From: an uncultured Oscillospiraceae bacterium
GTDB taxonomy: Bacteria; Bacillota; Clostridia; Oscillospirales; Butyricicoccaceae
Direction: 5' to 3'
NCBI GenBank assembly: GCA_964541085.1
Contig: CAZIPA010000006.1
Span: 4,528 to 68,527 of the forward strand
DNA length: 64,000 nt
A program made the translations under genes and the position numbers. The notes under the pieces were generated by a model. That model searched no databases. It was not told the origin of the DNA and was given only the letters and a program-made list of their open reading frames with translations. Shown in pieces: positions 1,745-16,209 of the stretch (position 1 is the stretch's first letter; each line of letters begins with the position of its first letter).

Positions 1745-3037
1745 TTACTGCTCCGTGATGTTTTTTTGCAGATCGGCCACTTTATTTTTCAAAAGCTCAT
1801 CCTCCTGCATGGCCGCCGTGAGCTTTTCCACGCCGTAAATCACAGAGGTGTGATGCTGGTTGAAGACCTTGCCGATCTCCGGATAGCTCATGCCGCCGAT
1901 CTCCCGCATGAGATAGCAGGCCACCTGCCGGGGAACCACGATCTCCTTGCTCCGGGCTTTGGAGGTGAGCCGGGACTGTTCAATGACAAAATAGTCCGCC
2001 ACTTCCTGCAGAATCATCTCCGGCGTGGGATGCAGACCGGGCTTTTCCTTGAAAATGTCCCGAATGGCCGTCTGGGCCAGCTCCATGTCAATGGGTTTGT
2101 TCATCAGCGTGTGAATGGCGGCGATTTTTTTCACCGCGCCCTCCAGCTCACGCACATTGTTGGTGATGTTCTCGGCAATGTAGGTGACCACCCGGGTGGG
2201 AATGGTGATGCCCATACCGGCGGCCTTGGCCTGAATCATGGCCATGCGGGTCTCCAGATCGGGACTCTGAATGTCCGCCATCAGACCGCTTTCAAACCGG
2301 GTGCGCAGACGGTCGTTCAGCGTGGCGATTTCCTTGGGCGGCCGGTCGGAGGTGAGCACGATCTGCTTGCCTGCCTGATACAGCGCCTCAAAGGTGTGGA
2401 AAAATTCCTCCTGCATCCGCACCTTGTTGGCGAGAAACTGTACATCGTCCATGAGCAGCAGGTCTACCTGCCGGTATTTCTGATAAAAATCCGCAAAGCC
2501 GGAGTTCAGCGCGGTCAGCAGATCGTTCATGAAATCCTCACTCTTGATGTAGAGAATGCGGAAGGTGGGATGGGTCTTGCGGATGTAGCCCGCAATGGCG
2601 AACAGCAGATGGGTCTTGCCCAGTCCGGAGCCGCCGTAAAGAAACAGCGGGTTGTACAGGGTGGCCGGCTGCTTTGCCACCGCCAGTGCCGCCGCGTGGG
2701 CAAACTGGTTGCTGCTGCCCACAATAAAGCGCTCAAAGGTGTAACCGGCGTAAACGCTGGTGTCGCTTTGCAGCCGCCAGCTGTCTGCCTCCGGGCCGAA
2801 GACATACAGAGGCCTGGTGGGTGCTTTCAAAAGATGAGAAATAATTTCCGAAACATTGTCGGTAAACTGGGCTGTCAGCGTCTCCTGAAACAGCTCGCTG
2901 GCCGCCTCGATGACAAAGCAGCCGTTTTGAATGGCGATGGGCCGGGCATCCTTGAACCAGGGATCCACGGTGATGGCTCCCAGCTCGTCCCGCAGCTGCC
3001 GCAGGGTTGCGTCCAGCAGGGCTTCGGGCGTATACAT
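1745..3037 (-). CDS. dnaA: Chromosomal replication initiator DnaA
   Basis: 430 aa. AAA+ Walker A GGSGLGKTHLL, Walker B LLLMDDVQF, C-terminal DNA-binding signature HTSVIYGVEK. GGAGG RBS. Confidence 0.95.
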   Translation of the reverse strand: MYTPEALLDATLRQLRDELGAITVDPWFKDARPIAIQNGCFVIEAASELFQETLTAQFTDNVSEIISHLLKAPTRPLYVFGPEADSWRLQSDTSVYAGYTFERFIVGSSNQFAHAAALAVAKQPATLYNPLFLYGGSGLGKTHLLFAIAGYIRKTHPTFRILYIKSEDFMNDLLTALNSGFADFYQKYRQVDLLLMDDVQFLANKVRMQEEFFHTFEALYQAGKQIVLTSDRPPKEIATLNDRLRTRFESGLMADIQSPDLETRMAMIQAKAAGMGITIPTRVVTYIAENITNNVRELEGAVKKIAAIHTLMNKPIDMELAQTAIRDIFKEKPGLHPTPEMILQEVADYFVIEQSRLTSKARSKEIVVPRQVACYLMREIGGMSYPEIGKVFNQHHTSVIYGVEKLTAAMQEDELLKNKVADLQKNITEQ

Positions 3038-3335
3038 GGCTGTGATTTCCTCCTTTTTTCTGTCTCTTTCCTTCTGGCTTTTTCCTCCGAAAATGAAAAA
3101 GCACGGCTGTCCGCGTCAGAAAAAAGCGCCCCCGCCCTCCGGTGCGTACATACCCTTCTCAGTATACCACACATATGATAAAAAGGAAAGTAAAAATTGC
3201 TGTGTTTTGCCCACGGATTTTCGCTCTGCGGGCCAAACAAAGACAGGGGAAGCTTTTCGCCGCCGGAACACTCTGTTGTTCCATTATAGCGCGTTTCCGT
3301 GCACAGAAAAAATGAAGCAGTTCACTTGACAGGTT

Positions 3336-3476
3336 CCCCGCAAAATCGAAGATTTTGCGGGGGCCACTTCAGATTTGACCGCCTCGGTCGCCCCGCTTCC
3401 GGGGCTTCCTGCGGCATGACGCCGCCACTCGGCGGCGGGGGCTTGCGCCTTTTTGCAAAATCGAAGATTTTGCGGG
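3336..3476 (+). repeat. Intergenic hairpin-cassette repeat, 'module B' copy 1
   Basis: Hairpins GCAAAATC-GAA-GATTTTGC (3340-3358, repeated at 3454-3472), GCCCCG-CTTC-CGGGGC (3390-3405) and CGCCGCC-ACTC-GGCGGCG (3420-3437). Homologous copies at 26636-26750 (inverted) and 34839-34958. Confidence 0.8.
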
Positions 3477-3543
3477 AAAGCAGAGCCGATATCATTGCGC
3501 AGCCTCTCTGCCGCCTCTCTTAAAAAATCCGCTAAAACCGCTG

Positions 3544-3552
3544 TGGTATCAT
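3544..3552 (+). promoter_or_regulatory. Candidate extended -10 promoter for the Ubl operon
   Basis: TGgTATCAT (TG-n-TATAAT-like) about 60 nt upstream of the Ubl start. No good -35. Weak call. Confidence 0.25.
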
Positions 3553-3614
3553 TATTTCACAAGCTCCCGCCGGGCACAGCCAGACGGAGAAAAAAAGAAA
3601 AGGAGATCATAAAA

Positions 3615-3932
3615 ATGACGAACCATCCTATCGACGGAGCCCTTGCCGCCAACGAAAAATCCTTTGAGATCGACCTCGTGAACAAGCAGACCGGCGCGAC
3701 CTATGCCCGGGCGAATGTCCTCGAAGACAACACCATGACGCAGATCCTTGGTGAGTATGCCGACGATATCGGCGTGAATCCCAAGAGCAGCAAACTCATT
3801 TTCGAAAACAAGCGCACCGGCGTGTCCACTTCCAATGCTGCCGAAACGGTTCAGGCCATGGGTCTGAAGCAGGGGGATGTGCTGGCAATTACGGATGACG
3901 GCGGTGTTGCGGCGGATGCTGCCGTAGTGTAA
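3615..3932 (+). CDS. Ubiquitin-like (beta-grasp) protein precursor with internal Gly-Gly
   Basis: 105 aa from ATG 3615 (AAAAGGAG RBS); the longer TTG ORF from 3453 runs through a repeat. Size and pattern fit one beta-grasp domain (KLIFENKRTG..QAMGLKQGDVLAITDDGG). G96-G97 (nt 3900-3905) is followed by the tail VAADAAVV. First gene of an E1/E2/JAB operon. Confidence 0.75.
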   Translation: MTNHPIDGALAANEKSFEIDLVNKQTGATYARANVLEDNTMTQILGEYADDIGVNPKSSKLIFENKRTGVSTSNAAETVQAMGLKQGDVLAITDDGGVAADAAVV

Positions 3933-3951
3933 GCGAAGGGGGTATGACCGG

Positions 3952-4377
3952 ATGGTGACGATCTGGATTCTGGTAGCCCTGTGTCTGGCCGCCTGCGGCG
4001 TCATCCTGATCTGTGCAACGGAAAAAGCGCCCCGGCGCCGCACTGTCAGACGGCCGCCTCCGCTCCCTCCCCGGGATCATCGGAACACAGCGCCGCCTCC
4101 GGTCGCTCGCCCCCAGACAGGCACATGCGGTGCCGCCCCCACAAGACCCCTGCCGCCCCGGCGTGTTTCAGCATCGGCAACCGTCAATGCAGCAGCAGGC
4201 ACCGTCCGGGCCGGCAGCGGCCCCCGTGGACTTCAGCCCCATCAGTTTCCCTGCTGTCCCATGGATAAATCGCGGAATGTTCCGGGAATGCAGCAGCTGA
4301 TCTTCTGGGACAGTGGGAAAAACTGCTATCGCTGTTCCCGTGGCCACCGGTTCCGGAGCAACGGAAGGCCGCTCTGA
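3952..4377 (+). CDS. Membrane-anchored Pro/Arg-rich protein with C-terminal Cys cluster
   Basis: 141 aa with a GAAGGGGG RBS. N-terminal TM helix (VTIWILVALCLAACGVILICA), a Pro/Arg-rich linker, and a C-terminal CC..CxxC..H cluster. Two other frames are also open here in this high-GC stretch, so the frame is uncertain. Confidence 0.5.
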   Translation: MVTIWILVALCLAACGVILICATEKAPRRRTVRRPPPLPPRDHRNTAPPPVARPQTGTCGAAPTRPLPPRRVSASATVNAAAGTVRAGSGPRGLQPHQFPCCPMDKSRNVPGMQQLIFWDSGKNCYRCSRGHRFRSNGRPL

Positions 4378-4403
4378 CAACACAAACGAAAGGATCGTGT
4401 CCT

Positions 4404-5675
4404 ATGTCCAAGGTTATTTACAACACATTAAAGCTGTCTGAATACCGGTCGCTGTTTCATGGAATGCGGGTGCTGGTAATCGGCGCAGGTGCGGTGGGCA
4501 CCCATCTTATGGAAAAGTTTGCGAAAATGGGTCTTTCCCCGGATGCGCTGGACTTTGACTTTTTCACGCTGGAAAACGCAGCAAAGCACAGCTGTCTGAT
4601 CCGCACGCCGGAGGATGCCAACCGGAACAAGGCGGAATGCGCCGCCGCCCGGGTACAGCCTCTTCTGGATGACGGCTGCTCCTCCAACGGGATCGACGGT
4701 GATCTTTGCAAAATCGGCCCCGAGGCGCTGGCAGATTATCGCTTTGTGGTGGTGGCTGTGGATAATTTCGATGCCAAGGTGCTGCTGGGCGAGCTGGTCC
4801 GGCAGCTTCCGGAGGAACGGCGGCCCATCGTCATCATGGACGGAACCTATGATGAGCTTGCCCAGAGCGTGATTCTCGATAACAACGACTTCTGTCTGCG
4901 CTGTCTGATCAGCGAAGACTGGATGCCCGACAGCAGCATCCGTACCTCCTGCTCCGGGCCGCAGGTGCGGCAGCGGAACGGTGCGGAGGAGATCGTCCGC
5001 ACCTCCAACCTTGCCAGCTCCATGGCCGCACAGCTCAGCGCAGAACAGCTCCGGGCCTGTGTGATCGGAAACGGCGATGTCATGAACCGCCGGCTGATCT
5101 ATACGGCCTATCCCCATCTGGAGCTGAGCTCCTCCCGGCCCCTGCGGAAGCGTGACTGCTCCGGCTGCGCGATCCATCCGCCCGCAGAGATCCAGTGGCT
5201 CCACGGCAGCGTTCTGGATATCACCCTGAAGGATGCCATGCAGCAGATTTCCGCCATTCTGGGCACGGAGGATTTCGAGCTCTCCGTCCATCAGCTGAAC
5301 TACCGGCGGGTATCCCACGCCCGCTTTATTGTGGATGATGTCTGTCATTCCTGCGGGAAACCCATCCCGGTGATGCGCCATGAGGGCCGCCTGTTTCTGA
5401 ACGATCTGCTGTGTACGGCCTGTGCCGCACAGGGAAAGCAGGCCCGTCAGGATGCCTCCTTTTCCCACGGAGAGGCGCTGGACGCCTTTGTGCCCGGCAG
5501 CCCGGAGGCGCTTCAGGAAATGACGCTCTACGATCTGGGCTATCCTCTCGGCGCACACCTTGCGGTGCTCCAGCGCAATCAGGCCCTGGACCTGCTGGAG
5601 CTGGGAAAAATCACGAAAACCGTGTTTGCATTGGACGGGGATGCCCGGAAGATGCATGAAATCCATAAGCTTTGA
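4404..5675 (+). CDS. E1-like Ubl-activating enzyme (ThiF/MoeB family)
   Basis: 423 aa. Rossmann VLVIGAGAVG (nt 4482-4499), DFDFFTLENAAKH, NKAECAA and VVAVDNFDAK match the E1 adenylation fold. Paired CxxC (CLRC, CSGC). Extra C-terminal CHSC...CTAC domain. Confidence 0.88.
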   Translation: MSKVIYNTLKLSEYRSLFHGMRVLVIGAGAVGTHLMEKFAKMGLSPDALDFDFFTLENAAKHSCLIRTPEDANRNKAECAAARVQPLLDDGCSSNGIDGDLCKIGPEALADYRFVVVAVDNFDAKVLLGELVRQLPEERRPIVIMDGTYDELAQSVILDNNDFCLRCLISEDWMPDSSIRTSCSGPQVRQRNGAEEIVRTSNLASSMAAQLSAEQLRACVIGNGDVMNRRLIYTAYPHLELSSSRPLRKRDCSGCAIHPPAEIQWLHGSVLDITLKDAMQQISAILGTEDFELSVHQLNYRRVSHARFIVDDVCHSCGKPIPVMRHEGRLFLNDLLCTACAAQGKQARQDASFSHGEALDAFVPGSPEALQEMTLYDLGYPLGAHLAVLQRNQALDLLELGKITKTVFALDGDARKMHEIHKL

Positions 5676-5690
5676 TAAGGAGGCTTTTCC

Positions 5691-6326
5691 ATGAGCGATT
5701 ATACTGCCAGCTATACCGATGAAAAGGGCCGTACCAAACAGGCCTCCCTGACCCCGGAGGACTCCATGCTGGCGCTGAAAAACGACTATGAAGAGGTTCT
5801 TCGGCGCTACAATCCCAAATATGTGACCATCCGCCGGATGCAGGCAAAGGCCGGTGAGGCGGCACACCTGCGGGTGACGGTCAACGCCCCTTCCCACTAT
5901 CTCACCGCCATCTCCGACACCGAGCCCAAGGCCTGTGACTCCATGGATGTGGATATCATCTGTTACATGGGCTATCCCCTCAAGCCGGTAAAAGCCTTCT
6001 ATGCCCCGGAGCATTATCTCGCATCCCCCAATGTGTTCCGCTCCGGGCTGGCCTGCATTGATACCTGGGTGCCCTTTACCAGCTCTCTGGTCTCGGTGGT
6101 GGACAAGCTGGTTCACGATATCATCCACGATCCCTGTGTCAGCCGGTATGACAGCGTGGCAAATCACGAAATGGTCCGGTGGCATAAGGACGGCGTTGCC
6201 GCGGGACGCTTTCCCACGCTTGCCCCCAGGCTGCTCAATGTCCCCCAGCAGACGGCGCTCCCGCCCCGCAGAGCACCCGGCAAGCCCGCTGCCGCACCTC
6301 CGTCCCTGCCCGCAAGACGCCGCTGA
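5691..6326 (+). CDS. E2-like Ubl-conjugating enzyme (UBC fold)
   Basis: 211 aa. UBC signature YMGYPLKPVKAFY..LASPNVFRSGLACIDTWVP: an HPN-like SPN motif with catalytic Cys122 at nt 6054-6056. AAGGAGG RBS. Pro/Ala-rich C-terminal tail. Confidence 0.85.
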   Translation: MSDYTASYTDEKGRTKQASLTPEDSMLALKNDYEEVLRRYNPKYVTIRRMQAKAGEAAHLRVTVNAPSHYLTAISDTEPKACDSMDVDIICYMGYPLKPVKAFYAPEHYLASPNVFRSGLACIDTWVPFTSSLVSVVDKLVHDIIHDPCVSRYDSVANHEMVRWHKDGVAAGRFPTLAPRLLNVPQQTALPPRRAPGKPAAAPPSLPARRR

Positions 6327-6347
6327 ACCGAAAGGAGCTGATCTTTT

Positions 6348-7238
6348 ATGACCAATCATGCGGTTCCCCTGCCCACCAGACGCCCGCCCCAGCCGAAAAC
6401 CTATCCCGTTTGCAGCCTGAAGAAGGTGATGGACATGATCCAGACCTCCTGCGGCAATGTTTCCATCAAAGAACGGCATGGCAGCGGCCGGGACAAGGTG
6501 ATCCTGCTTCCCGAGGCGGAGCAGGAGCTGACCACCATCGTCTCCTATGGCCGCCGCTCTCCCATGAATCGCTGCGAACAGAAGCTTGTTGGCATGGGAC
6601 ATTTCCTGCTGAACGACGACGGCGCCGTGATCGTCATCGTCAGCCATTTCATGGAGCTTCAGACCATGAACCGCAGCCCGGTCAGCGCCTCCGGTCTGGG
6701 CCCCAACGGCGAAAACAATCCCGGGCTGGATTTTCTGGAATATCATCGCACGGAGTTTCTCCGGGATGAGGCCAGATTCAACACCGATGCCTATGGCTGT
6801 CTGGTAGACCCATTTCTCAAGCTCTGCGGCCCCAGTGAGTTTGTGATGGATGCCCATACCCATCCGGATCTGGGGGTCTTTTACAGCCATGCTGACCGGG
6901 TGAACGGCGCGGCCCGTGCCGGTTCGTCTCCGGTGTGCATCCTTGTGTGCGATCCCATCCGGAAAAAGCTGCTGGGCAGCATCGGACGGGAGCTGGTGGA
7001 GGCAGAAATTCTGGTGTATTCCCGCAGTGCAGCTCCCCGGAAGGAGCGCAGCGGGGAGCCCTGCGAAGTGCCCTGCGGGGACAGCCGCCTGCTGCCGCCC
7101 ACGGACGAGCTTGTACAGCTGGCCGGTCAGTGTCTCCGCACCCGTGGCTTTTCCGGCAATGTCCGGCTCCGTTCCCGTCTGGACGGCAAATGCTGCCTGA
7201 ACATCCAGATGGTGATCCCCAAAAACAGAAAGGAGTAA
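6348..7238 (+). CDS. JAB/JAMM (MPN+) metallopeptidase, predicted Ubl-processing/deconjugating enzyme
   Basis: 296 aa. Complete JAMM motif: E77 (CEQKLVGMG) ... H170-T-H172-x7-S180-x2-D183 (HTHPDLGVFYSHAD, nt 6855-6896). AAAGGAG RBS. Confidence 0.88.
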   Translation: MTNHAVPLPTRRPPQPKTYPVCSLKKVMDMIQTSCGNVSIKERHGSGRDKVILLPEAEQELTTIVSYGRRSPMNRCEQKLVGMGHFLLNDDGAVIVIVSHFMELQTMNRSPVSASGLGPNGENNPGLDFLEYHRTEFLRDEARFNTDAYGCLVDPFLKLCGPSEFVMDAHTHPDLGVFYSHADRVNGAARAGSSPVCILVCDPIRKKLLGSIGRELVEAEILVYSRSAAPRKERSGEPCEVPCGDSRLLPPTDELVQLAGQCLRTRGFSGNVRLRSRLDGKCCLNIQMVIPKNRKE

Positions 7239-7243
7239 CGCGC

Positions 7244-8224
7244 ATGGCAAACCCTCCGGAAAAACTGGGCTCCGTGTACTACAGGAGCTTTCTCTCCCAC
7301 CAGGGGCAGATTTTTTATGACCGCCTTCAGGCCCAGCTTCTCCGGGGGGATTTTTCGGGCAAAACCGACTTTTCCCTGTGCGATCCCGAAACGGCGGCCT
7401 CCGACGGCTTTGCCGCCTACAAAGCCCTCCGGGACGATCATCCGGAGCACTTTTTTCTGGGAACCCAGAGCGAGTTTACCCGCCGGGGCCTGAGCGGCAC
7501 GCTGACCTATACGATGCTGTATACCCCGGAGATCATCGCACGGGTCCGGCAGCAGCTGCGAAAGACCATCTGCCAGCTTGTGCGCGGCACCGCGGAGCTG
7601 TCCATGCTTCAGCGGGAGGCGCTGGTTTATGAGCGCATCGCAAAGCGCATGACCTACACCAACCATGCGGATGTGCGTGACCACAACATCGTGGGGCCTG
7701 TGCTGAACGCCGAGGGTGTGTGCGAGGGGCAGAACGCGCTGCTGCTGCTGTGCTTCCGGCGGATCGGCATTCCCTGCGTCAAGGTGTACGGCAAAGCCAA
7801 CCCGGACGGCTGGCACTGCTGGACGGTGGCGTGGCCCGACGGAGACCCCGTTCACTGTGATGTGACCTGGGACGGCGCAAAGGGCGGCGTTGTAGGCTTT
7901 CATTATTTCAATCTCCCGGACCGGCAGATCGGGGAAAATCACTTCGCCTTTCAGGGAGAGCGTGTTCCCGTCTGCACTGCGGAAAATCTCACCTATTATC
8001 AGCTGCACGGCCTTTGCGTCCGTTCCCACGCAGAGCTCCGGGCACGGCTGAAGCGGGATTTTCAGCGGGGCGTAATGCCCATCCGGATTCAGTTTCTGTA
8101 CAGTCCCGCCTCCGGCAGCTATCGGGAGGAGGTCAAAAGTGCCCTTTCCGCAGAAAACCTCTATAGCAGCCGCAGACTGTACTGTTATCCCCGCTTAAAA
8201 AACATGGTAATCACCACCGTGTAA
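7244..8224 (+). CDS. Transglutaminase-like cysteine protease-fold protein
   Basis: 326 aa from ATG 7244, 5 nt after the JAB stop, with an AGGAG RBS. Transglutaminase-core Cys-His-Asp: GVCEGQN (C160), GWHCW (H191), HCDVTWD (D206). Confidence 0.82.
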   Translation: MANPPEKLGSVYYRSFLSHQGQIFYDRLQAQLLRGDFSGKTDFSLCDPETAASDGFAAYKALRDDHPEHFFLGTQSEFTRRGLSGTLTYTMLYTPEIIARVRQQLRKTICQLVRGTAELSMLQREALVYERIAKRMTYTNHADVRDHNIVGPVLNAEGVCEGQNALLLLCFRRIGIPCVKVYGKANPDGWHCWTVAWPDGDPVHCDVTWDGAKGGVVGFHYFNLPDRQIGENHFAFQGERVPVCTAENLTYYQLHGLCVRSHAELRARLKRDFQRGVMPIRIQFLYSPASGSYREEVKSALSAENLYSSRRLYCYPRLKNMVITTV

Positions 8225-8248
8225 AATCAAGACAAAGGAGTTGATGCT

Positions 8249-9337
8249 ATGTATCAATCGGTGATCAGAGACCCCGGCGGCGACGGACTGATCCGTGTTC
8301 TGCCGGATGCCTGGGGACAAAACCCCATTGTAAACGGGAGTCTGCTGCTGGTGCCCCCCGGCACGGTGGCGCTGGTGAACATCAACGGCCTGCTGTCCCG
8401 GCCCTATGGCCCCGGCAGATATGAGCTTTTCACCGGCGTGGATCCCTTCTTTGTGCGGCTCCGGAATCTTCTTACCCGTGGAGACCCCGGAACGACCGTA
8501 TCCGTCTTTTTCATTTCCACCGAAAAGACGGTGTTTCTCCGTCTCGGCACGGGTGAGTTCCCCTTCCGGGAGCATCGTTTTCAGCTGACCATGAAGGCCC
8601 TTGCCGCCTGCTGCCTTTCCTTCTCCGTGTCGGATCCCCGGACGCTGCTGGAAAAGCTGGTGGGAAGCTACCGCTCGTCCTTTTCTCAGGAGGATCTGGA
8701 GCCCTGCATCGAGCAGCTGATGCTGGCACCCGTCCGGGAAGCCGTTTCCGAAGCCATTGGCAGGCTGGATATCACGGCCTTCAACAGCCATCTTTCTCAC
8801 ATCGCAAGGCTGTCCACGGCAGCGATCCGCACCCGCCTGTCGGATTACGGCATCCGGCTGGAGCGGTTTGATCTTACAGCGATCAACATTCCCGACGGGG
8901 AAATGCAGCGGCTCTATCGTCTGGAGCAGTCGTTTGCCGAAGGGAAGACCCGCACCGATCTGGAGCTGGATCATCTGCAACGGGTCTGGCAGGGAAGCAC
9001 CGACCGCCGCACCATGAGCGAAATGATGACCGGGCTTCCTTCCCGTGGACAGGCTCCCGCCGGCGGAAACGCAGGGGGCATGGCGCCCATGATGATGCAG
9101 ATGATGATGCTTTCCCAGCTGCTTCCGGCTCTGCGGGAACCCCTTTCCGAAATGACCCGGCACACGGATCTGTTTGGCGGCAGCCCTTCCGGCCCGCAGG
9201 AAAGCACCTCCTCTGCCAACGCCCCTCCGCCCATGCCCGCCAGACACCGGCGCTGCCCCTCCTGCAACGGAGCTGTGGCACGCAGTGCCGTTCTCTGCCC
9301 CATCTGCGGCTATCCTCTGAATGAAAGGAATGACTGA
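8249..9337 (+). CDS. SPFH/band-7-like protein with C-terminal zinc ribbon (COG4260-like)
   Basis: 362 aa. The N-terminal ~250 aa resemble the stomatin/prohibitin-like 'virion core protein' family. Met/Gly-rich linker. C-terminal CPSC-x13-CPIC zinc ribbon. Confidence 0.7.
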   Translation: MYQSVIRDPGGDGLIRVLPDAWGQNPIVNGSLLLVPPGTVALVNINGLLSRPYGPGRYELFTGVDPFFVRLRNLLTRGDPGTTVSVFFISTEKTVFLRLGTGEFPFREHRFQLTMKALAACCLSFSVSDPRTLLEKLVGSYRSSFSQEDLEPCIEQLMLAPVREAVSEAIGRLDITAFNSHLSHIARLSTAAIRTRLSDYGIRLERFDLTAINIPDGEMQRLYRLEQSFAEGKTRTDLELDHLQRVWQGSTDRRTMSEMMTGLPSRGQAPAGGNAGGMAPMMMQMMMLSQLLPALREPLSEMTRHTDLFGGSPSGPQESTSSANAPPPMPARHRRCPSCNGAVARSAVLCPICGYPLNERND

Positions 9338-9338
9338 A

Positions 9339-9872
9339 ATGCAGTACAGAAATACTTCCTGGATCCCCATCCTTGCGGCCATCGTGATGATCCCCCAGCT
9401 GCTGTTCTGGTGGCTTGCGCCCGGCGCTGCCGCCGCCCGTCTCGCAGTGTACATCGGGGGAAGCCTTCTGACGCTGGCCATCCCCCTTTGCTGGCTTCTG
9501 ACCTGCTGGAACAGCAATCTCCGCAAAACGGCGGGGCTTTCTCTGGTGGCCGGGGTGCTGGAGCTGGCAGTGGTCGTGCTCTCCGCCGTTCTGCTGGCCA
9601 TCAATGTCACCGTCCGTTCTGCCGTATTTGCCCTTCTGATTATGGCGCTGGTGTGTCTGATTCTGCTGCTTCCGCTGATCTGCGCCGCCCTGAAGCAGCC
9701 TCGGCAGGGTGTCTATTCTGCCACCATCGCCGGAGAGCCAGGCCGTCCGCAGCCGCGCATCCGTGAGGCTGCTCCAGCGCCCGCACCGGTCTGCCGGCAG
9801 CAGACTGCCGTGACGGAGCCTGCGCCCCGCACGCCCACCGTCAGCAAGCCTCTGCCGCCCCGAAACCGATAA
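9339..9872 (+). CDS. Polytopic membrane protein (about 4 TM) with Pro-rich tail
   Basis: 177 aa from ATG 9339 (GAAAGGA RBS, 1 nt after the SPFH stop; an alternative ATG at 9321 overlaps it). Four hydrophobic helices, then a Pro/Ala-rich C-terminus. Confidence 0.7.
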   Translation: MQYRNTSWIPILAAIVMIPQLLFWWLAPGAAAARLAVYIGGSLLTLAIPLCWLLTCWNSNLRKTAGLSLVAGVLELAVVVLSAVLLAINVTVRSAVFALLIMALVCLILLLPLICAALKQPRQGVYSATIAGEPGRPQPRIREAAPAPAPVCRQQTAVTEPAPRTPTVSKPLPPRNR

Positions 9873-9901
9873 TCCGGCTCTGACAGAAAGGCGGTGATGC
9901 T

Positions 9902-10531
9902 ATGGATCGCGTTTGCAGCCGCTGCGGCGGCTCCAGCTTTCATTACAATCGCAGCCGCATGAGAATGGAATGCGATATCTGCGGCACGCCGGTTTCCGAT
10001 CCCCAGCGGGAACAGCAGCTGATGCAGTTTGACCGGGCCTGTTCTCAGGCGATGGAGCATCTGACTGCCGGAAACTGGGAGATGGCCCTTCAGCTTTTAC
10101 AGCCGCTGCTGCATCAGCATCCCACGGAAAAACGGCTGTATCTTGCGGTGCTGCGGGCGGCCACGAAGGATTTTACCGACATTGCCATGGCAAACGCGGC
10201 AAACCGGCACATTGCCTCGGAAGCCTGGGACAGGCTGGTACGGCTGAACGGTGTCACCGGGGCCATGATCCGGTATGGCAGACAGCGCTATGCTCTGCAC
10301 CGGGGAGAGCTTCTGCGCCAGCGCAGGAAGCTTCTGGCATGGATCTTTGCGGCGGCGCTCTGCTCGCTTCTGGCCGGTATTTTTCTGGAGACAGAGCACG
10401 GCTTTCTGGCGGTGCTGTGTGTGGGCGGTCTTTTTGGCTGCCTGTACCAATTCTCCCGCAGCCAGCCCATCCCTGTGATTCGGCATCTGCTGTGTGCCGT
10501 GCCCGGCGATCAGCACAATCCTTTTCTTTAA
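9902..10531 (+). CDS. Zinc-ribbon protein with helical repeat region and C-terminal TM hairpin
   Basis: 209 aa. N-terminal CSRC-x14-CDIC zinc ribbon, a TPR-like helical segment (AMEHLTAGNWEMALQLLQPLL), and two C-terminal TM helices. Confidence 0.7.
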   Translation: MDRVCSRCGGSSFHYNRSRMRMECDICGTPVSDPQREQQLMQFDRACSQAMEHLTAGNWEMALQLLQPLLHQHPTEKRLYLAVLRAATKDFTDIAMANAANRHIASEAWDRLVRLNGVTGAMIRYGRQRYALHRGELLRQRRKLLAWIFAAALCSLLAGIFLETEHGFLAVLCVGGLFGCLYQFSRSQPIPVIRHLLCAVPGDQHNPFL

Positions 10532-10543
10532 GGGGGTCTTTTC

Positions 10544-13087
10544 ATGAAGAAGTTTTATGATGGCGGAGAATGCTTTGTGCTGACGGCCTGCTCCATTGAG
10601 GCCGCACCCCTTGCAAGCAGCCAGCAGGTGGGCATCAACCTTGCGAAAACCCTCTGTGAGGATGCCTGCTATCTCTCCGCAGAGGGAAACGGGCAGACGG
10701 CACTGGAGCTTTTCCGCATTGCCGGAAAAACCCCCGGCAGTCCCATCCGGCATATTCTGACGATCCGTACCCATGACCGCTCGGAGCGGGATTGTGTGAT
10801 CCGGCAGGAGGCGCTGGAAAGGGGCATTCTGTCCCTGCTGCACCAGTCGGGCTACCGTATCCGTGAACTGCCCTTTGATGACTACCGGAGACAGCTTGCA
10901 CAGCTGGACACTGCCGCTGTCTGGGCGCTGAAAAAGCAGGAGGTGCAGGAATATGGCGTGCAGAACACCTATCGCTCTCCCGCAAGAGTGGAGGAGGTTC
11001 ACTGGGAAGGCATCTATTCCGCGCTGGCCGGCTCCGGCTGCGCCCTGTGCGTGCAGATCATTCCCGCTCTGCTGTCGGAGAACGAACGGCAGCGCATCGC
11101 AAAAAACACCGCCCATTGCTCTCAGGCAGTGGACGGTGTGGTGACAAATCTGCGGGACGGACTGGCTGCCGCCGCTGCGGAACGGTGGAAATACTATGCC
11201 CAGAATGCCTCCCGCCCCTTTGCAGAGGTGAATCTTCTGGTGATCGGCTCCGTTCCCGCCAGCGCCCTGACGGCGGCCCGGCTGAAGCAGTCGGTGCGGG
11301 AAGCCGCCCTGCAAACACTTCCCGTCCCGGATTTTGGCAGCTACACCGTCTACAATCAGCCCTGGCGGCTTGCCCGTGCTTTGCGCTCCGCCGACACCGG
11401 CAGTCTGGATCGGTGGACCTCTGAGGAGGCCGCCCAGATCTTTCAGCTGCCGGTGCAGGGCCATTTTTTCACCGGGCTGGAGGGAAACCCCTTCTCTCTG
11501 ATTCCCGAGCTGGAGCTTTTGCCGGAACAGCTGACCTGCGGCGGCGTGCCGGGGATCGTTCTGGGACGCTCTGTTTTTTCCGCCCGGCAGGTGGGGCTTC
11601 CGCCGGAACAGCTGCTGCTCCATACCGCAGTGATGGGAAAATCCGGCACCGGAAAGACGACGCTCCTGAAGCAGCTGATCGCACAGCTGCGGCGGCAGGG
11701 CATTCCGGTGCTGATTCTGGAGCCGGTGAAGCGGGAATACCGGGATCTGATTGCCGGACTGCCGGGCAGCAAAATCTTTACCGTGGAGCGCCCGGTGACG
11801 CCGCTGCTGATCAACCCCTTTTATGTCCCGAAGGGTGTGCCGCTGGGAGAATACAGAAGCTGTCTGCTGTCTGCCTTCAAGGCTGCCTTTTCCCTGCCCG
11901 ATCCGCTGCCGGCCCTGTTTGAAAAGGCCATCTCCGAGGCTTATACCCTGCACGGCTGGACGGACAGCAGCAGCAGCACCGATCCCGATGTCACCCTTTT
12001 TGACATGGCGGATTTTGTGCGTGTCTTCAAACGCATCATCGCCCGTTCTGGCTACAGCAATGAGGTCAAGGGCAACATGATGTCCGGCGGTGCCTTCCGG
12101 CTGCAAAGCCTGCTCGACCGCTGTCCCCGCACCTTTGATACCATCCATTCCACCGCTGTGGAGGAGCTGCTCTCCGGCTGCGCCGTTCTGGAAATGGGAA
12201 ACCTGGAGCCGGAACAGAAGGCGCTGGTTTCCGCCCTGACCCTCATCAGCATCCTGGCCTGGCTGAAGGCGACCAGAAAAAGTGAGCACCGTCTGAAAAA
12301 CATTCTTCTCATCGACGAGGCCCATGCCCTGCTGGATCAGGGAGAAGGGGCAACCATGGAGGAAAAGGCACTGAACAGCACCATGACCCAGCTGATGATC
12401 AATGTGATCACGGAGATTCGGGCCTATGGAGTGGGGGTCATTTTTTCCGTTCAGTCTCCCTCCCGGGTGGGCGGACGGCTGCTGGACAATGTGGACAACC
12501 TGCTCTCCTTCCGGCTCAGCGGCGAAGAGGCGGAAATGCTCCGGGCGCACATCGGCGCGGACGACAGTCTCTGCACGGTGCTTCCGCTGCTGTCTGCCGG
12601 TGAGCTGCTGGTGAAAAACCGCTTTCTCCGGTCTCCGCTGCCGGTCAGAATGAATGATCCCGCCGGGCTCTCCCGGACAGACCCCGTTTCCGATGAGGCC
12701 ATTGTCCGGGCGCAGACGGGCTATCTGGCGGCCCACGCCGGGGATTATTGTCCCTTTGCCCTCTGCAGGGCTGCCGGGTGCCGCTGCTGCTCCGTTTCCG
12801 TCCGGGAAGAGGCAAAGCTGTTTGCGGAGCAGCTGTTTGCCCAGCGGCAGCACAAGCTGCGCACGCCGGAGGAAGTTGCCGCACACCTGCTGCGTCTCCC
12901 GGCGGCGCTGGCCTCCCGTATTTCCCAGAGTGACAAAGGCGTTTTTCAGAAGCTTTGCGGCTGCACGGCGGTCCATCTCCTGCGGAAATGTGCCCTGGAG
13001 GGGGGCGTTTCCCTTGGCCAACAGGCCGCCGCAGCGCTGCTGACCGAAATGTATCAACAGAAAAAGGAGGAATCTGGCAATGAATGA
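10544..13087 (+). CDS. HerA/FtsK-type (DUF87-like) P-loop ATPase with large unknown N-terminal domain
   Basis: 847 aa. Walker A VMGKSGTGKTTLL followed by PVLILEPVKREY (HerA-like), Walker B NILLIDEAHALL, VIFSVQSP sensor region. Cys-rich C-terminus. AAGGGGG RBS. Confidence 0.82.
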   Translation: MKKFYDGGECFVLTACSIEAAPLASSQQVGINLAKTLCEDACYLSAEGNGQTALELFRIAGKTPGSPIRHILTIRTHDRSERDCVIRQEALERGILSLLHQSGYRIRELPFDDYRRQLAQLDTAAVWALKKQEVQEYGVQNTYRSPARVEEVHWEGIYSALAGSGCALCVQIIPALLSENERQRIAKNTAHCSQAVDGVVTNLRDGLAAAAAERWKYYAQNASRPFAEVNLLVIGSVPASALTAARLKQSVREAALQTLPVPDFGSYTVYNQPWRLARALRSADTGSLDRWTSEEAAQIFQLPVQGHFFTGLEGNPFSLIPELELLPEQLTCGGVPGIVLGRSVFSARQVGLPPEQLLLHTAVMGKSGTGKTTLLKQLIAQLRRQGIPVLILEPVKREYRDLIAGLPGSKIFTVERPVTPLLINPFYVPKGVPLGEYRSCLLSAFKAAFSLPDPLPALFEKAISEAYTLHGWTDSSSSTDPDVTLFDMADFVRVFKRIIARSGYSNEVKGNMMSGGAFRLQSLLDRCPRTFDTIHSTAVEELLSGCAVLEMGNLEPEQKALVSALTLISILAWLKATRKSEHRLKNILLIDEAHALLDQGEGATMEEKALNSTMTQLMINVITEIRAYGVGVIFSVQSPSRVGGRLLDNVDNLLSFRLSGEEAEMLRAHIGADDSLCTVLPLLSAGELLVKNRFLRSPLPVRMNDPAGLSRTDPVSDEAIVRAQTGYLAAHAGDYCPFALCRAAGCRCCSVSVREEAKLFAEQLFAQRQHKLRTPEEVAAHLLRLPAALASRISQSDKGVFQKLCGCTAVHLLRKCALEGGVSLGQQAAAALLTEMYQQKKEESGNE

Positions 13088-13733
13088 ACTGGAAACCATG
13101 GATCTGGACACCGCTGCGGAGGAGGACTTTGACCTTCCCGATGCCGACAGCTGGGCAGAGCTGGACACACCGGAGCCGGAGGACTGCGCCGGGGATATCC
13201 CGGACACACCGGAGCTGCTGTCTGATGGGGAAAAAGCTGCCGATTATGCCCGCTCCTTCGGCTTTGACCGGGCTGCGGACTATATCCAGCGGCATTATGA
13301 CGGGGACGAATACACCCCCGGCGATCCCATCCGCATTTCCACCCGCAACATGGGGCTGGAGGGTCTTGCTGCGGAAAACGGCGTTCCCTTTGAGCGGCGG
13401 ACGGCCCAGCTTGCCGAAGGTCTGTCGGTGGAGGGGGTCTTTCCCGCCTTTGACAGCCGCCATCATGTGGAGCTGGGCGATGCCGCGAAGGATATGAGCC
13501 TTCACCAGCAGTTCAGCGCCTGCAGGGAAGATTTTCAGGATCATATGTATGATTCCCCCGAAAAGCTGGCGGACATCACCTTCGGCGCGATGGAGCGGAT
13601 GGACGCACCCCAGGGCTATACGCCGGAGGGCTTCACCTGGCAGCACAATCCCGAAACCGGCAGCTTTGATCTGGTATCCAAAGACGCTCATTCCGTCGGG
13701 CACACCGGCGGGAACGCTTTGTGGGGGAAATAG
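13080..13733 (+). CDS. Acidic-N-terminus protein with HNH/EndoVII (WHH-like) nuclease motif
   Basis: 217 aa. The start overlaps the ATPase stop by 8 nt. The first ~50 aa are strongly acidic. The C-terminal GFTWQHNPETGSFDLVSKDAHSVGHTGG (nt 13638-13712) resembles the WHH/AHH-type toxin nuclease pattern W-x-H..LV...H...H-T-G-G. Confidence 0.6.
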   Translation: MNELETMDLDTAAEEDFDLPDADSWAELDTPEPEDCAGDIPDTPELLSDGEKAADYARSFGFDRAADYIQRHYDGDEYTPGDPIRISTRNMGLEGLAAENGVPFERRTAQLAEGLSVEGVFPAFDSRHHVELGDAAKDMSLHQQFSACREDFQDHMYDSPEKLADITFGAMERMDAPQGYTPEGFTWQHNPETGSFDLVSKDAHSVGHTGGNALWGK

Positions 13734-13999
13734 TGCGCCGCAGGCGCTGTATGCCTTCTCAGGCGGCCCCCCCACAAACGCAAAGCACCCCTGGGAGACC
13801 CCAGAGGTGCTTTGTCCAATACAGTGAACGGACAACCGGATGTGTTTAAGGAGTTCTTTATGAAAAAAGCGTTTTGCTTTTCCCTGTGTGTCTATAATAT
13901 ATCAAACCCGCAGGCATCTGTCAAGATGAAATCTGAAAATCGTGATGTTGCACAAAATACACAGGTTCCGATTGTGCAGTATGCTCAATGGGCACACGG

Positions 14000-14049
14000 G
14001 CTTTTTCCAAAAGAGCACTCCGGCAGGGCTAGAAGCCGCCGCCGGAGTG
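14000..14049 (-). terminator. Rho-independent terminator of htrA
   Basis: Stem CACTCCGGC (14016-14024) / GCCGGAGTG (14041-14049) with inner pairing. On the minus strand a U-rich CTCTTTTGG follows it. Confidence 0.5.
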
Positions 14050-14077
14050 TAATTGCATTCTGCTGCTTGTCTGCCGG

Positions 14078-15583
14078 TCAGTTGGCGTTGGGGTTTGCCA
14101 CCAGTGTGACGCTGACGGAAACCAGCTTGCCGCTGCGCTCCACATTCAGCTCCACCACATCGCCGGGGGCCTTGTCCGCCAGATAATCCGTCACATCGGT
14201 GCTCTGGGAGACCATCACCGCGTCCACGCTGATGATCCGGTCGCCCACGGCCAGACCAGCTTCCTCGGTGCTCTTTTCCGTAATGCTGGAAACATACACG
14301 CCGGGAGCCATGTTATACTGCGCCGCCGTCTGAGAGGTGAGGGTCTGAACGGTGATGCCCAGAATGGCCCGGTTGGAGGTCTGGGTCACGCCGTTTTCAT
14401 CGGTGTTTGTGCTGCCGTCGCCGTCGGGAGACACATAAACGCCGTTGGCGATGAGCTGAGAAGCGATCTCCATGGCCGTGTTGCTGGGGATGGCGAAGCC
14501 CAGTCCCTCAGAATCGGTGTCCGAGCTCTTGGCGGAAACAATGCCGATGAGCTGGCCGTGATCGTTGAACAGCGCGCCGCCGGAGTTGCCGGGAGAAACC
14601 GCCGCCGTCATCTGGATCACATGGAGGGTCACATTGGTATAATAGCTGGCAGAGCCGCCGTAGAACATATCATAGAGGCTGTTGCCCCGGTTTTTGGCGC
14701 TGGTATCCTCCACCTGCACGGTGATGGTGCGGTCGAGGGCGGACACAATGCCGTCGGAAATGGAGCCGGAAAAGCGGCCCTCCGGGTTGCCCACGGCGTA
14801 GCAGGCGGCACCCTGGCGCACCTGATCGCTGTCGGCGATTTCCGCAGCCTTCAGACCCTGAGCGTCGATCTTCACCACGGCGATATCACCGTTTACATAG
14901 CTGCCGGTGATCTGTGCCGCATGGGTGGTGCCGTCCCGCAGCTCCACGGTGACCTTGGAAGCGCCGTTGATCACATGGGCGGCGGTGAGGATGTAGCCAT
15001 CCTCCGAAATAATCACGCCGGAGCCTGCGCCGGAGGTGACATAATTGCCGAACCAGTAGTTGCTGGTGGTCATGATCTCGGTGGTAATGGCCACCACGGA
15101 ATCCTCCACCTTGGCCGCCACCTGTTCGCTGGTGAGCACACCTTCCGCCACGGCGGCGGGGGTATCGTTGCCGGTGGTGGTCACCTGCTGGAGCACCACA
15201 CGGTTGGTGTTCTGATAGACGATCTGCGCACCCGCATAGCCCGCGCCAAAGCAGATAGCCGCAGCCACCAGCACCGCCAGCACGCTCAGCAGCACCTTTT
15301 TGCCGTTGATCCTTTTCCGGGGCCGGCGCGGGGGCTCGGTCACCGTGGGCTGGGGCGGCGTAAAGGTGGAATCCTGCCATTCTGCCGTGCCAAAGCTGGC
15401 CTGCCGGGGCTCCTCCTCCTGCTGATAGGGGAGACTCTGACTGGTATAATGATATTCACTGCTTTCCGAGGGAGAAGGGGCAGCGAACGGCTCCTGAGGG
15501 ATTTCCTGCTCCGGCTGCCGGGGCTGCTCCTGAGGCTGCTCGGGCTGTTCGGGCTGATATCCGTTGTTTTCAAACTCGTTCAT
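14078..15583 (-). CDS. htrA: HtrA/DegP-family serine protease with PDZ domain
   Basis: 501 aa. Trypsin-like triad context (LTAAHVINGA, GNSGGALFN). C-terminal PDZ-like region. N-terminal Q/P/E-rich segment and a TM anchor. Confidence 0.9.
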   Translation of the reverse strand: MNEFENNGYQPEQPEQPQEQPRQPEQEIPQEPFAAPSPSESSEYHYTSQSLPYQQEEEPRQASFGTAEWQDSTFTPPQPTVTEPPRRPRKRINGKKVLLSVLAVLVAAAICFGAGYAGAQIVYQNTNRVVLQQVTTTGNDTPAAVAEGVLTSEQVAAKVEDSVVAITTEIMTTSNYWFGNYVTSGAGSGVIISEDGYILTAAHVINGASKVTVELRDGTTHAAQITGSYVNGDIAVVKIDAQGLKAAEIADSDQVRQGAACYAVGNPEGRFSGSISDGIVSALDRTITVQVEDTSAKNRGNSLYDMFYGGSASYYTNVTLHVIQMTAAVSPGNSGGALFNDHGQLIGIVSAKSSDTDSEGLGFAIPSNTAMEIASQLIANGVYVSPDGDGSTNTDENGVTQTSNRAILGITVQTLTSQTAAQYNMAPGVYVSSITEKSTEEAGLAVGDRIISVDAVMVSQSTDVTDYLADKAPGDVVELNVERSGKLVSVSVTLVANPNAN

Positions 15584-15681
15584 AAAAAATACTCCTTTCG
15601 GGGGAAACCTTTCTGTTTACAGTCTGATCTTACAACAGAAATATAAACCCTGTTTTTACAAAAGATAAACCCCAGTTAAAA

Positions 15682-16035
15682 TCATTTCGGCACGGTGAGA
15701 ATCAGCGCCAGCATCCGTGCGGGCCGATCCGAACGGTTTTCAATGCTGTGGGAAACGCCGGAGTGGGCATAGGAGGCATCACCGGGACGCAGCACGGTAT
15801 CCTGTCCGTTTTCCGTCAGCGTCAGCTCACCCTCCAGCAGATAATAGACCTCCGCGTCGCTGTCGTGGACATGGGGGCCGATGCTGTCGCCGGGATCGAA
15901 GAAAAACTCTGTCAGCAGGGTAGCGCTGCCAAACATGGCCTCTGCCTCCAGAATGTGCCGGTTTTCCAGACGGCCGCTGCCGCCCCGCACCCCGTCCCGC
16001 ACCTGAAGCCGCTGCTGCTCTTTGCGAATTACCAT
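15682..16035 (-). CDS. Cupin-domain protein
   Basis: 117 aa from ATG 16035 (GAAAGGA RBS). Cupin motifs GPHVHDSDAEVYYLLEGE and VSHSIEN. The upstream part of the longer ORF lies inside a repeat. Confidence 0.75.
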   Translation of the reverse strand: MVIRKEQQRLQVRDGVRGGSGRLENRHILEAEAMFGSATLLTEFFFDPGDSIGPHVHDSDAEVYYLLEGELTLTENGQDTVLRPGDASYAHSGVSHSIENRSDRPARMLALILTVPK

Positions 16036-16074
16036 AAAATCAGTCCTTTCTTTGTCTTTCATGCCTAATTTTCC

Positions 16075-16207
16075 GCCGCCCCGTGTCGGCGTTGTGCCGT
16101 CTGAGGGATTGTTCTCTCGTCCCCCGTCCCTCACGCCCGCAGGCGCATCACGCACGAAGTGCGCATCACGCTGCGAAGCATCGCATCACGCCGCAAGGCG
16201 CATCACT
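16075..16207. repeat. Intergenic hairpin-cassette repeat ('module A', GCGCATCACG units)
   Basis: CCCGCAGGCGCATCACGCACGAAGTGCGCATCACGCTGCGAAGCATCGCATCACGCCGCAAGGCG. Near-identical to 18640-18715 and reverse-complementary to 22830-22905, 27045-27095 and 34505-34560. Confidence 0.8.
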
Positions 16208-16209
16208 TA

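Follow-up and report, generated by a model that had tools for sequence, protein, structure and literature searches.

A predicted ubiquitin-like precursor with a conserved Val-Ala C-terminus in a conjugation-type gene cassette of gut and rumen Clostridia

We analysed a 64,000-nucleotide stretch of DNA from an uncultured Oscillospiraceae bacterium (GenBank assembly GCA_964541085.1, contig CAZIPA010000006.1, positions 4,528 to 68,527 of the forward strand; hereafter the window) and, within it, a gene at 3615-3932 that encodes a 105-residue ubiquitin-like protein (Ubl) and heads an operon with genes for E1, E2 and JAMM/JAB peptidase homologues. The functional C-terminus of this protein is most likely Val98-Ala99, not Gly-Gly, as judged from conservation across its family and from its register with eukaryotic relatives, and the window protein is probably a precursor in which a six-residue cap, ADAAVV, follows Ala99. 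We consider it probable that the Ubl serves as modifier in a ubiquitination-like conjugation cassette, with Ala99 as its functional end. An earlier note on this DNA, made from the sequence alone, is right in kind, having recognised a Ubl precursor in an E1/E2/JAB operon, and wrong about the cut site, which it placed after a Gly-Gly doublet. The parts of the Ubl gene are as follows.

3615-3932, plus strand: Ubl precursor gene, 105 residues plus stop (translation, ribosome-binding site AAGGAG, beta-grasp model from AlphaFold2 (AF2), Foldseek matches, 120 family representatives)
3615-3662, plus strand: N-terminal extension, residues 1-16 (MTNHPIDGALAANEKS), with low predicted local distance difference test (pLDDT) scores
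3663-3893, plus strand: beta-grasp core, residues 17-93 (AF2 elements, pLDDT > 90)
3900-3905, plus strand: G96-G97, the cut site of the earlier note, in the register of ubiquitin L73-R74, not G75-G76
3906-3911, plus strand: V98-A99, conserved family C-terminus and proposed mature end (92-member conservation, di-Ubl junctions, register)
3912-3929, plus strand: six-residue cap ADAAVV, residues 100-105, disordered in the AF2 model and, as proposed here, cut off by the JAMM peptidase

The Ubl gene is real. It is syntenic in 21 species-level genomes and many metagenome contigs, and an identical protein is present in 59 blocks of the assembly collection. Translation confirmed the 105-residue open reading frame (ORF) quoted in the earlier note, with the product MTNHPIDGALAANEKSFEIDLVNKQTGATYARANVLEDNTMTQILGEYADDIGVNPKSSKLIFENKRTGVSTSNAAETVQAMGLKQGDVLAITDDGGVAADAAVV and the C-terminal letters ...GDVLAITDDGGVAADAAVV before the stop, and also the position of G96-G97 at nucleotides 3900-3905. 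The ribosome-binding site AAGGAG lies 8 nt 5' of the ATG. A longer, TTG-started ORF spans 3453-3932, but is not used, because every homologue begins at the methionine of MTN.... That the Ubl gene is the first of its operon also held, homology between two unrelated genomic contexts starting at 3498. No convincing plus-strand promoter was found 5' of the Ubl gene in a promoter scan, and an Rfam scan of 2900-4500 gave nothing credible.

By its predicted structure, the protein is a beta-grasp, ubiquitin-like protein. The AF2 model, built from a ten-sequence alignment (A1), has a mean pLDDT of 82.5, with the core above 90, and its elements (b1 17-23, b2 29-35, a1 41-52, b3 62-65 and b5 89-93) follow the order beta-beta-alpha-beta-beta. 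Foldseek matches in the PDB were exclusively ubiquitin-fold proteins, with SUMO1 (many entries), the Ubl domains of TBCB/TBCE, the Ddi1 UBL and ubiquitin at the top, and with ubiquitin variants and Caldiarchaeum ubiquitin also among them; their probability is 1.0, their E values run from about 1e-4 to 1e-3 (about 1e-4 for SUMO1, the Ddi1 UBL and ubiquitin) and their target-normalised TM scores from 0.65 to 0.76. Searches with phmmer gave weak matches to the Ddi1 UBL (E 0.009) and ubiquitins, and a BLASTP comparison with SUMO1 was uninformative. The single beta-grasp domain expected in the earlier note is thus borne out by the model of residues 17-93 and its matches to SUMO1, the Ddi1 UBL and ubiquitin; an N-terminal extension is present as well, although it measures 16 residues in the AF2 model and not about 20.

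Both ends of the chain, residues 1-10 and 98-105, are disordered in the model, the latter with pLDDT below 50. Although disordered, the N-terminal peptide MTN-x-P-I-D-x-A-L (3615-3644, residues 1-10) is nearly invariant in close homologues, with M1, N3, I6, D7, A9 and L10 unchanged throughout, and the second repeat of di-Ubls is without the extension that contains it. This peptide may be a docking or recognition element, present once per protein.

The case for Val-Ala comes from the C-termini of the family. A word-index homology search recovered just 9 relatives, most of them 98-100 residues long and ending ...SDNAGVA, with A99 invariant and GG not kept. When 1.84 billion cluster representatives were searched exhaustively with a profile, 120 members came out at E<=1e-3 (64 of these at E<=1e-10), two- and three-domain forms included, and we counted C-terminal residues in an alignment of the 92 members that cover the profile end. 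Position 99 is Ala in 82/92, with Gly in 3 more, and position 98 is Val in 86/92. Position 97 is variable: Gly occurs there in 23/92, and the 15 residue types found also comprise K, S, T, C, I, V, N, R, D, P, Q, A, H and M. Position 96 is Gly in 53/92 and Ala in 22/92, and N, T, E or Y in some members; the GG doublet is confined to a small minority of the family. The conserved end can be written ...D-(D/N)-(G/A)-x-Val98-Ala99.

Many members carry nothing beyond this pattern. Exactly 44/92 end at ...VA, and 4/92 have no tail but terminate in ...V-G or ...V-V; three members end in Val-Gly, as UFM1 does. Tails of 2 residues (mostly A-x or G-x) occur in 21/92, of 3 residues in 7/92 and of 4-9 residues in 13/92, with longer tails of 21, 65 and 135 residues in the remaining 3/92, and wherever VA is not terminal, the tail begins mostly with A or G. 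When ORFs were read to the stop from genomic DNA, about 22/27 ended directly after VA, among them the Ubls of loci L018 and L020, which end ...ISDDGGVA and so have the GGVA of the window protein without its tail. Among close relatives, the six extra residues (A-D-A/V-A-V-V) are limited to the window Ubl and two others (P0001 and P0003).

Multi-domain relatives place the boundary at the same point. In the head-to-tail di-Ubls of loci L007, L008 and L012, ...SDNAGVA is followed directly by A(D/N)EE(A/T)FEIDL, which makes VA the end of the repeat unit; L004 encodes a fused di-Ubl from whose junction GVA is gone. The 15-residue tail of the L011 protein (VA followed by GDEEAFTSDLIKKIS) resembles a decayed second repeat (compare VA followed by ADEETFEIDLLNK), and the tail of the window Ubl also begins A-D, like second repeats. 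Ubl tails are plausibly remnants of poly-Ubl repeats, and the window cap ADAAVV is probably what is left of a former head-to-tail second repeat.

The register with eukaryotic Ubls points to the same residue. We aligned the protein with the ubiquitin, NEDD8, SUMO1 and UFM1 precursors by MAFFT (local-pair). The last block is gapless: RLRGG in ubiquitin, ALRGG followed by GGLRQ in NEDD8, EQTGG followed by HSTV in SUMO1, RDRVG followed by SC in UFM1 and DGGVA followed by ADAAVV in the window protein. A99 falls under the mature terminal Gly of ubiquitin (G76), NEDD8 (G76), SUMO1 (G97) and UFM1 (G83), and ADAAVV falls under their pro-peptides. An hhalign comparison of A1 with ubiquitin plus NEDD8, used for register only at a probability of 1%, ends at L90=Ub L67, and its gapless extension sets A99 at G76 and G96-G97 at L73-R74. 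Ala99 is taken as the functional end because family conservation and register, two independent lines, agree.

The claim of a ubiquitin-style Gly-Gly end, cut after G97 to release an eight-residue tail, is accordingly not supported by the comparison with homologues, in which G97 varies and V98-A99 is kept. The removable tail is most likely ADAAVV, six residues rather than eight, because A99 aligns with the terminal Gly and VA is the natural end. The broader claim that the Ubl is made as a precursor requiring C-terminal trimming is very probably correct in this organism.

Three enzymes of a conjugation pathway are encoded downstream.

4404-5675, plus strand: E1, a single ThiF-type adenylation domain with a C-terminal Zn domain (Pfam ThiF, invariant Cys)
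5691-6326, plus strand: E2, with a UBC fold, an (S)PN motif, Cys122 and a Pro/Arg-rich C-terminal tail (AF2, Foldseek, motifs)
6348-7238, plus strand: JAMM/JAB metallopeptidase (conserved JAMM motif, weak Pfam Prok-JAB match, 0.003)

The E1 (423 residues) matches Pfam ThiF at 9e-15 over residues 21-250, with GxGxxG at 27-32, and no second adenylation domain was found in it by Pfam. Its invariant cysteines in 23 orthologues are C164xxC167, C252xxC255, C183, C314xxC317 and C337xxC340. The first two pairs would form the usual structural Zn site and the last two lie in the predicted C-terminal domain, while C183, sixteen residues past the crossover CxxC, is the candidate catalytic Cys. A profile search of PDB sequences returned UBA3 (9e-5), Uba1 (1e-4), Cap2 (1.6e-4), UBA7, TcdA, SAE2, MoeB, MccB and ThiF, with no BilD chain and no Bil or Bub E1 at E<=1. 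In PADLOC and NCBIfam, the E1 had weak matches to Cap2-type, ThiF, UbaA and 6A-MBL models, and it appears to be distantly related to Cap2.

The E2 had no match in Pfam, PADLOC or NCBIfam, its 143 homologue clusters are all unnamed, and a profile search of PDB sequences gave spurious Fab light-chain matches only. Because that search was uninformative, the assignment rests on the AF2 model (pLDDT 89.2), on Foldseek, in which the top 50 matches were UBC enzymes throughout (Cdc34, Ube2G1/2, Ubc9, Rad6, UbcH5; 5e-5 to 1e-3), and on motif alignment, in which YPLKP...SPN...C122 aligns with YPTKP...HPN...Cys of a UBC enzyme. Invariant residues are GYP, L-A-S-(P)-N114, G119, C122 and W126.

The JAMM peptidase gene is the fifth of the operon, four genes downstream of the Ubl as the earlier note stated, and its motif is intact: LPE56A...H170-T-H172-PDLGVFY-S180-xx-D183 is kept in 21 orthologues. 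As neither single-sequence nor profile searches of PDB sequences gave a match, this assignment rests on the JAMM motif and the weak Pfam match. More generally, the Ubl, the E2, the JAB and the second gene of the operon (g2) had no family in PADLOC or NCBIfam, and none in Pfam save the Prok-JAB match. From their sequences, the E1, E2 and JAB look catalytically competent. The JAB is kept in every locus that reaches far enough, whether the Ubl is tailed or tailless, and since tailless Ubls also have it, its main role is probably deconjugation, with precursor trimming secondary.

The operon is part of a larger transferable block, in which ten further plus-strand genes lie 3' of the Ubl gene with short gaps or overlaps. 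In addition to the four core genes, the features are as follows.

3498-13739, plus strand: whole cassette, 11 genes, 10.2 kb, a discrete transferable unit (homology breakpoints, synteny in L001-L027)
3952-4377, plus strand: g2, with an N-terminal transmembrane helix, a Pro-rich linker with two PLPPR motifs and a C-terminal Cys-rich (FPCCP...CYRC..GH) Zn-ribbon-like domain (alignment of 23 orthologues; Zn-ribbon Cys conserved)
7244-8224, plus strand: transglutaminase-like Cys enzyme (Pfam Transglut_core 3e-6; triad C159/H190/D205 conserved; ATG and ribosome-binding site confirmed)
8249-9337, plus strand: SPFH/Band-7 protein with a C-terminal Zn ribbon (Pfam Band_7_1 4e-15 and Zn_ribbon_3; conserved CxxC...CxxC)
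9321-9872, plus strand: polytopic membrane protein ending PLPPR (ORF; C-terminal P177-L178-P179 conserved)
9902-10531, plus strand: protein with an N-terminal Zn ribbon and a C-terminal transmembrane segment, ZnTM (conserved C5xxC8...C24xxC27; weak Pfam matches only)
10544-13087, plus strand: HerA/FtsK/VirB4-type P-loop ATPase (Pfam HerA_C and DUF87; PADLOC HerA and mad8; NCBIfam CedD; Walker A and B conserved)
13080-13733, plus strand: WHH/colicin-DNase nuclease whose N-terminal region is acidic (Pfam Colicin-DNase 1e-11 and WHH 5e-8; motif conserved)

As a discrete unit, the cassette occurs in three genomic contexts or more. The 10.2-kb block is 92-98% identical in nucleotide sequence in another context, next to VanW and M20-peptidase genes (L029-L033), with homology limits at 3498 and 13739; these breakpoints are sharp, and no integrase or repeats were noticed there in the comparison with L029-L033. 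The window copy adjoins dnaA, the minus strand upstream carrying dnaA (1745-3037) and dnaN (331-1446), and other copies adjoin a TraG-type coupling protein gene (L001-L003) or NACHT, kinase and M50 genes (L004-L006). DnaA boxes showed no clustering between dnaA and the cassette, and a scan for terminators found none 3' of the nuclease gene.

Searching one genome from each of 185,579 species, we found E1 relatives at 21 loci, all in Clostridia, with hosts in the Oscillospiraceae, Lachnospiraceae, Anaerovoracaceae and Eubacteriales from gut or rumen. The gene order Ubl-g2-E1-E2-JAB-transglutaminase-SPFH-membrane protein-ZnTM is held in nearly all 21 genome loci. The ATPase and nuclease genes are present in most and absent in L018-L021, which retain the Ubl/E1/E2/JAB core. 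A tblastn search of phage and plasmid collections with the E1 found no cassette, returning two distant ThiF/MoeB plasmid matches only.

Several cassette proteins share a short motif, (L/M)-P-x-R-(R), typically PLPPR, that resembles a class II SH3 ligand (PxxPxR). It occurs on five of them, in g2 (residues 38 and 67), the E2 tail (190 and 206), the JAB N-terminus (8), the SPFH protein (263 and 329) and the membrane protein at 9321-9872 (178), and is conserved in orthologues, which suggests a common docking site holding a complex together. The start codon of the nuclease gene overlaps the stop of the HerA-like ATPase gene, and a strongly acidic stretch lies within the first ~110 residues of the nuclease. 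No conserved immunity gene was found 3' of the nuclease, at 13734-14077 of the window or in other copies, and the ATPase and nuclease look more like an effector pair than an exported polymorphic toxin.

Taking the fold, conservation, catalytic residues, synteny and boundaries as its basis, we infer a pathway for the cleavage site, the adenylation of Ala99, the Cys relay, the target and the role. The JAMM peptidase would cut after Ala99 of the capped Ubl; a cut of the same kind would separate di-Ubl repeats and later reverse conjugates. The single-domain ThiF-type E1 would then adenylate the Ala99 carboxylate and take the Ubl on its crossover-loop Cys183, hand it to Cys122 of the UBC-fold E2, and the Ubl would finally be linked to a target amine. 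The other genes of the cassette suggest a membrane as the site of conjugation and a coupling to a DNA-directed effector. By analogy, the system would most plausibly serve in defence against phages or other mobile elements. An Ala end would have a precedent in E1/E2 chemistry: the CD-NTases (cGAS/DncV-like nucleotidyltransferases) of type II CBASS (cyclic oligonucleotide-based antiphage signalling system) end in Gly or Ala, and the Ala-ending Enterobacter cloacae enzyme is conjugated (PMC10097602).

Several points weigh against this pathway. A small residue (G/A/S/C) occupies position 96 as well in 86/92, and a cut after it, with a conserved x-V-A pro-peptide, is conceivable. A penultimate beta-branched Val is unusual in E1 substrates, UFM1 (Val-Gly) excepted. 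The JAB is kept irrespective of the Ubl tail, and tail removal is thus not its sole role. No E3, sensor or target was identified in the cassette analysis, the argument for defence draws on analogy, patchy distribution and effector types, and the conjugation chemistry is a prediction for every member of the family. In the type II Bil system of E. aridi, moreover, the C-terminal Ala98 of BilA is an inhibitory cap that blocks adenylation (PMC10557695), and an Ala end is therefore not automatically reactive.

Alternative placements of the reactive end fare less well. The model of the earlier note, in which G96-G97 is the reactive end, the JAMM peptidase cuts after G97 to remove VAADAAVV and the E1 adenylates Gly97, is unlikely. 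GG is the canonical Ubl end, JAB peptidases trim type II Bil and Bub Ubls to expose a conserved Gly, and the window GG sits four residues past strand b5 as assigned by DSSP; yet this cut would discard the strongly conserved V98 and A99 in favour of a position that is Gly in 23/92 relatives only, half of the family terminates at VA, and ubiquitin G76 and SUMO1 G97 align with A99, not with G97. Were the small residue 96 the reactive end, x-Val-Ala would be a conserved, peptidase-recognised pro-peptide removed in every member. The 86/92 count of G, A, S or C at position 96 would fit, as would the one-residue Ala cap that has to be removed from E. aridi BilA, but known Ubl pro-peptides are conserved neither in sequence nor in length, whereas no part of the tail is more conserved than V-A, which is also the commonest natural end. 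As the register with ubiquitin, SUMO1, NEDD8 and UFM1 also sets position 96 at ubiquitin L73, and N, T, E or Y occurs there in some members, we regard this placement as very unlikely.

Two further models dispense with conjugation. YukD serves type VII secretion as a non-covalent adaptor, and it is conceivable, if quite unlikely, that the Ubl is a YukD/EsaB-like adaptor of this sort, with the FtsK/HerA-type ATPase exporting the WHH nuclease as an interbacterial toxin. The cassette does join a Ubl to membrane proteins and to an FtsK/HerA/VirB4-like ATPase, and its WHH nuclease belongs to the polymorphic-toxin repertoire; type VII secretion systems pair the YukD Ubl with a YueA-like FtsK/HerA ATPase (PMC3482391). 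But the cassette has an E1, an E2 and a JAB whose catalytic residues are invariant, and a conserved, exposed C-terminus and poly-Ubl junctions characterise conjugated modifiers. No WXG100/LXG domain was matched, the ATPase has one P-loop domain and not three, no immunity gene follows the nuclease, and L018-L021 keep the Ubl/E1/E2/JAB core without ATPase or nuclease. A sulfur carrier of the ThiS/MoaD-ThiF/MoeB type, passing through an acyl-adenylate to a thiocarboxylate for cofactor or metabolite synthesis, would agree with the best curated matches of the E1, which are to the ThiF, UbaA and MoeB families and all far below cut-offs. It is extremely improbable: the cassette, mobile and patchily distributed, has no thiazole or molybdopterin genes, includes a UBC-fold E2 with a catalytic Cys and a JAMM peptidase, and encodes a Ubl whose fold matches SUMO/ubiquitin rather than ThiS/MoaD and has no conserved GG end.

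The core of Ubl, E1, E2 and JAB is of a known kind, shared with type I and II Bil, Bub and type II CBASS. Like type II Bil (BilABCD, formerly CEHH/6C), the cassette has separate Ubl, E2, JAB and E1 genes, and in both the Ubl often starts out with a short C-terminal cap, which in type II Bil is removed by the JAB before adenylation (PMC10557695, PMC11601603). The end differs: in type II Bil Ubls a Gly is universally conserved, and the up to 9 residues after it are not (PMC10557695), whereas here no Gly is conserved and Val-Ala is, usually in terminal position. BilD is a multidomain E1 of inactive adenylation, active adenylation and Cys domains (IAD-AAD-CYS); the 423-residue enzyme here has a single ThiF domain with a crossover-loop Cys, and GxGxxG at 27-32 leaves no room for an N-terminal IAD. 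Gene order is Ubl-E2-JAB-E1 in type II Bil and Ubl-g2-E1-E2-JAB here, with seven extra conserved genes, and hosts are mainly Rhizobiaceae in the one and Clostridia in the other. The window E2 resembles canonical eukaryotic UBC enzymes as against the CEHH type, a distinction drawn from structural matches; it is without the His of HPN, as described for 6d E2s. In type I Bil (ISG15-like, 6d) the Ubl is two-domain, and the earlier note had set the window protein apart from BilA on this ground. The window Ubl is indeed single-domain, but the contrast is not a general one, as type II Bil Ubls are mostly single-domain, multi-domain forms being rarer (PMC11601603), and the present family has di- and tri-Ubls. 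PADLOC models, in a library whose Bil content is unconfirmed, matched none of the Ubl, E2 and JAB, and Cap2-type E1-E2 models alone matched the E1.

Type II CBASS resembles the cassette in using E1/E2 chemistry on a C-terminal Gly or Ala, with reversal by a JAB, Cap3 (PMC10097602). The Cap2 substrate is a CD-NTase and not a beta-grasp Ubl, however, Cap2 is an E2-E1 fusion where the enzymes here are separate, and Pfam found no nucleotidyltransferase or cyclic-nucleotide effector in the cassette. Bub (6E/DUF6527) has a Ubl/E1/E2/peptidase operon, Ubls of 1-3 beta-grasp repeats and JAB-released Ubl in common with it, but works through oxyester intermediates and has no catalytic Cys, whereas E1 C183 and E2 C122 are invariant here. 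Fused Ubl-E2 or E2-E1 proteins and cutting after a conserved Gly, as in Bub, are not seen, and the Bub DUF6527 serine protease BubE had no Pfam match in ten of the 11 cassette proteins (all but that at 9321-9872). Operon types 6a-6e (Iyer et al. 2006) do not match the cassette.

With eukaryotic Ubl precursors the protein shares its fold and its spacing from b5 to the mature end. Short pro-peptides or repeats removed by a dedicated peptidase are also found in SUMO1 (GG followed by HSTV), NEDD8 (GG followed by GGLRQ), UFM1 (VG followed by SC) and polyubiquitin, but there the peptidase is a Cys protease, where here it would be a JAMM metalloprotease, and about 90% of the present family have Ala as terminal residue. 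Of the general traits of Ubl modifiers, the beta-grasp fold and cognate E1, E2 and peptidase are present and a conserved Gly-Gly end is not. Neither the ThiS/MoaD traits (GG end, linkage to thiamine or molybdopterin genes) nor those of type VII secretion YukD/EsaB (EssC with three FtsK domains, WXG100/LXG substrates, no E1/E2) were found.

From its sequences, the Ala-terminal system looks like a new form of a known kind of bacterial ubiquitination-like machinery; we found no description of the gene combination or of an Ala-terminal beta-grasp Ubl in the searchable literature, outside which lie subscription-only papers such as Burroughs et al. (2011). More tentatively, and with some doubt, the cassette could represent a fourth, undescribed bacterial ubiquitination-like family confined to gut and rumen Clostridia, marked by an obligatory Val-Ala end, JAMM release from capped or poly-Ubl precursors, a minimal E1, a eukaryote-like E2 and an SPFH-scaffolded, PLPxR-docked membrane complex that controls defence by the HerA-like ATPase and WHH nuclease. 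The discovery of ubiquitination-like systems in bacteria (type II CBASS, Bil and Bub) is recent, and these systems are central to the question of how eukaryotic ubiquitin signalling arose. If this reading is true, the cassette adds a family from Gram-positive gut anaerobes, with an E2 structurally nearest to canonical eukaryotic UBC enzymes and a minimal, single-domain E1, and extends the reactive Ala end, so far seen only for CBASS CD-NTases, to a true Ubl. Its uncapped, capped, cleavable di-Ubl and fused di-Ubl forms make a natural series for testing processing specificity, and seven accessory genes point to a coupling of Ubl conjugation to an effector for which we found no description in the searchable literature.

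Some loci depart from the common arrangement. L014 has four tandem Ubl genes at 4944-6518, of which one is truncated at ...AITAY, the second of two Ubl genes in L019 (9133-9522) ends ...ENAHII, and L017 encodes an extra protein (15577-16251), between the ZnTM and ATPase genes, in which a Ubl domain is fused to a C-terminal domain. On several public contigs with identical DNA, g2 is left uncalled by gene finders as a gap between Ubl and E1; as it is conserved in 23 loci, it is likely to be under-annotated in databases. In a few loci the later genes are replaced, from a point after the JAB or the transglutaminase-like gene: by a different putative nuclease or toxin and a P-loop ATPase in L009 (12728-14776), and by possible PP2C-like and Ser/Thr kinase-like proteins in L016 (7050-11087), both identified by sequence reading only. 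These replacements suggest that the downstream modules are exchangeable.

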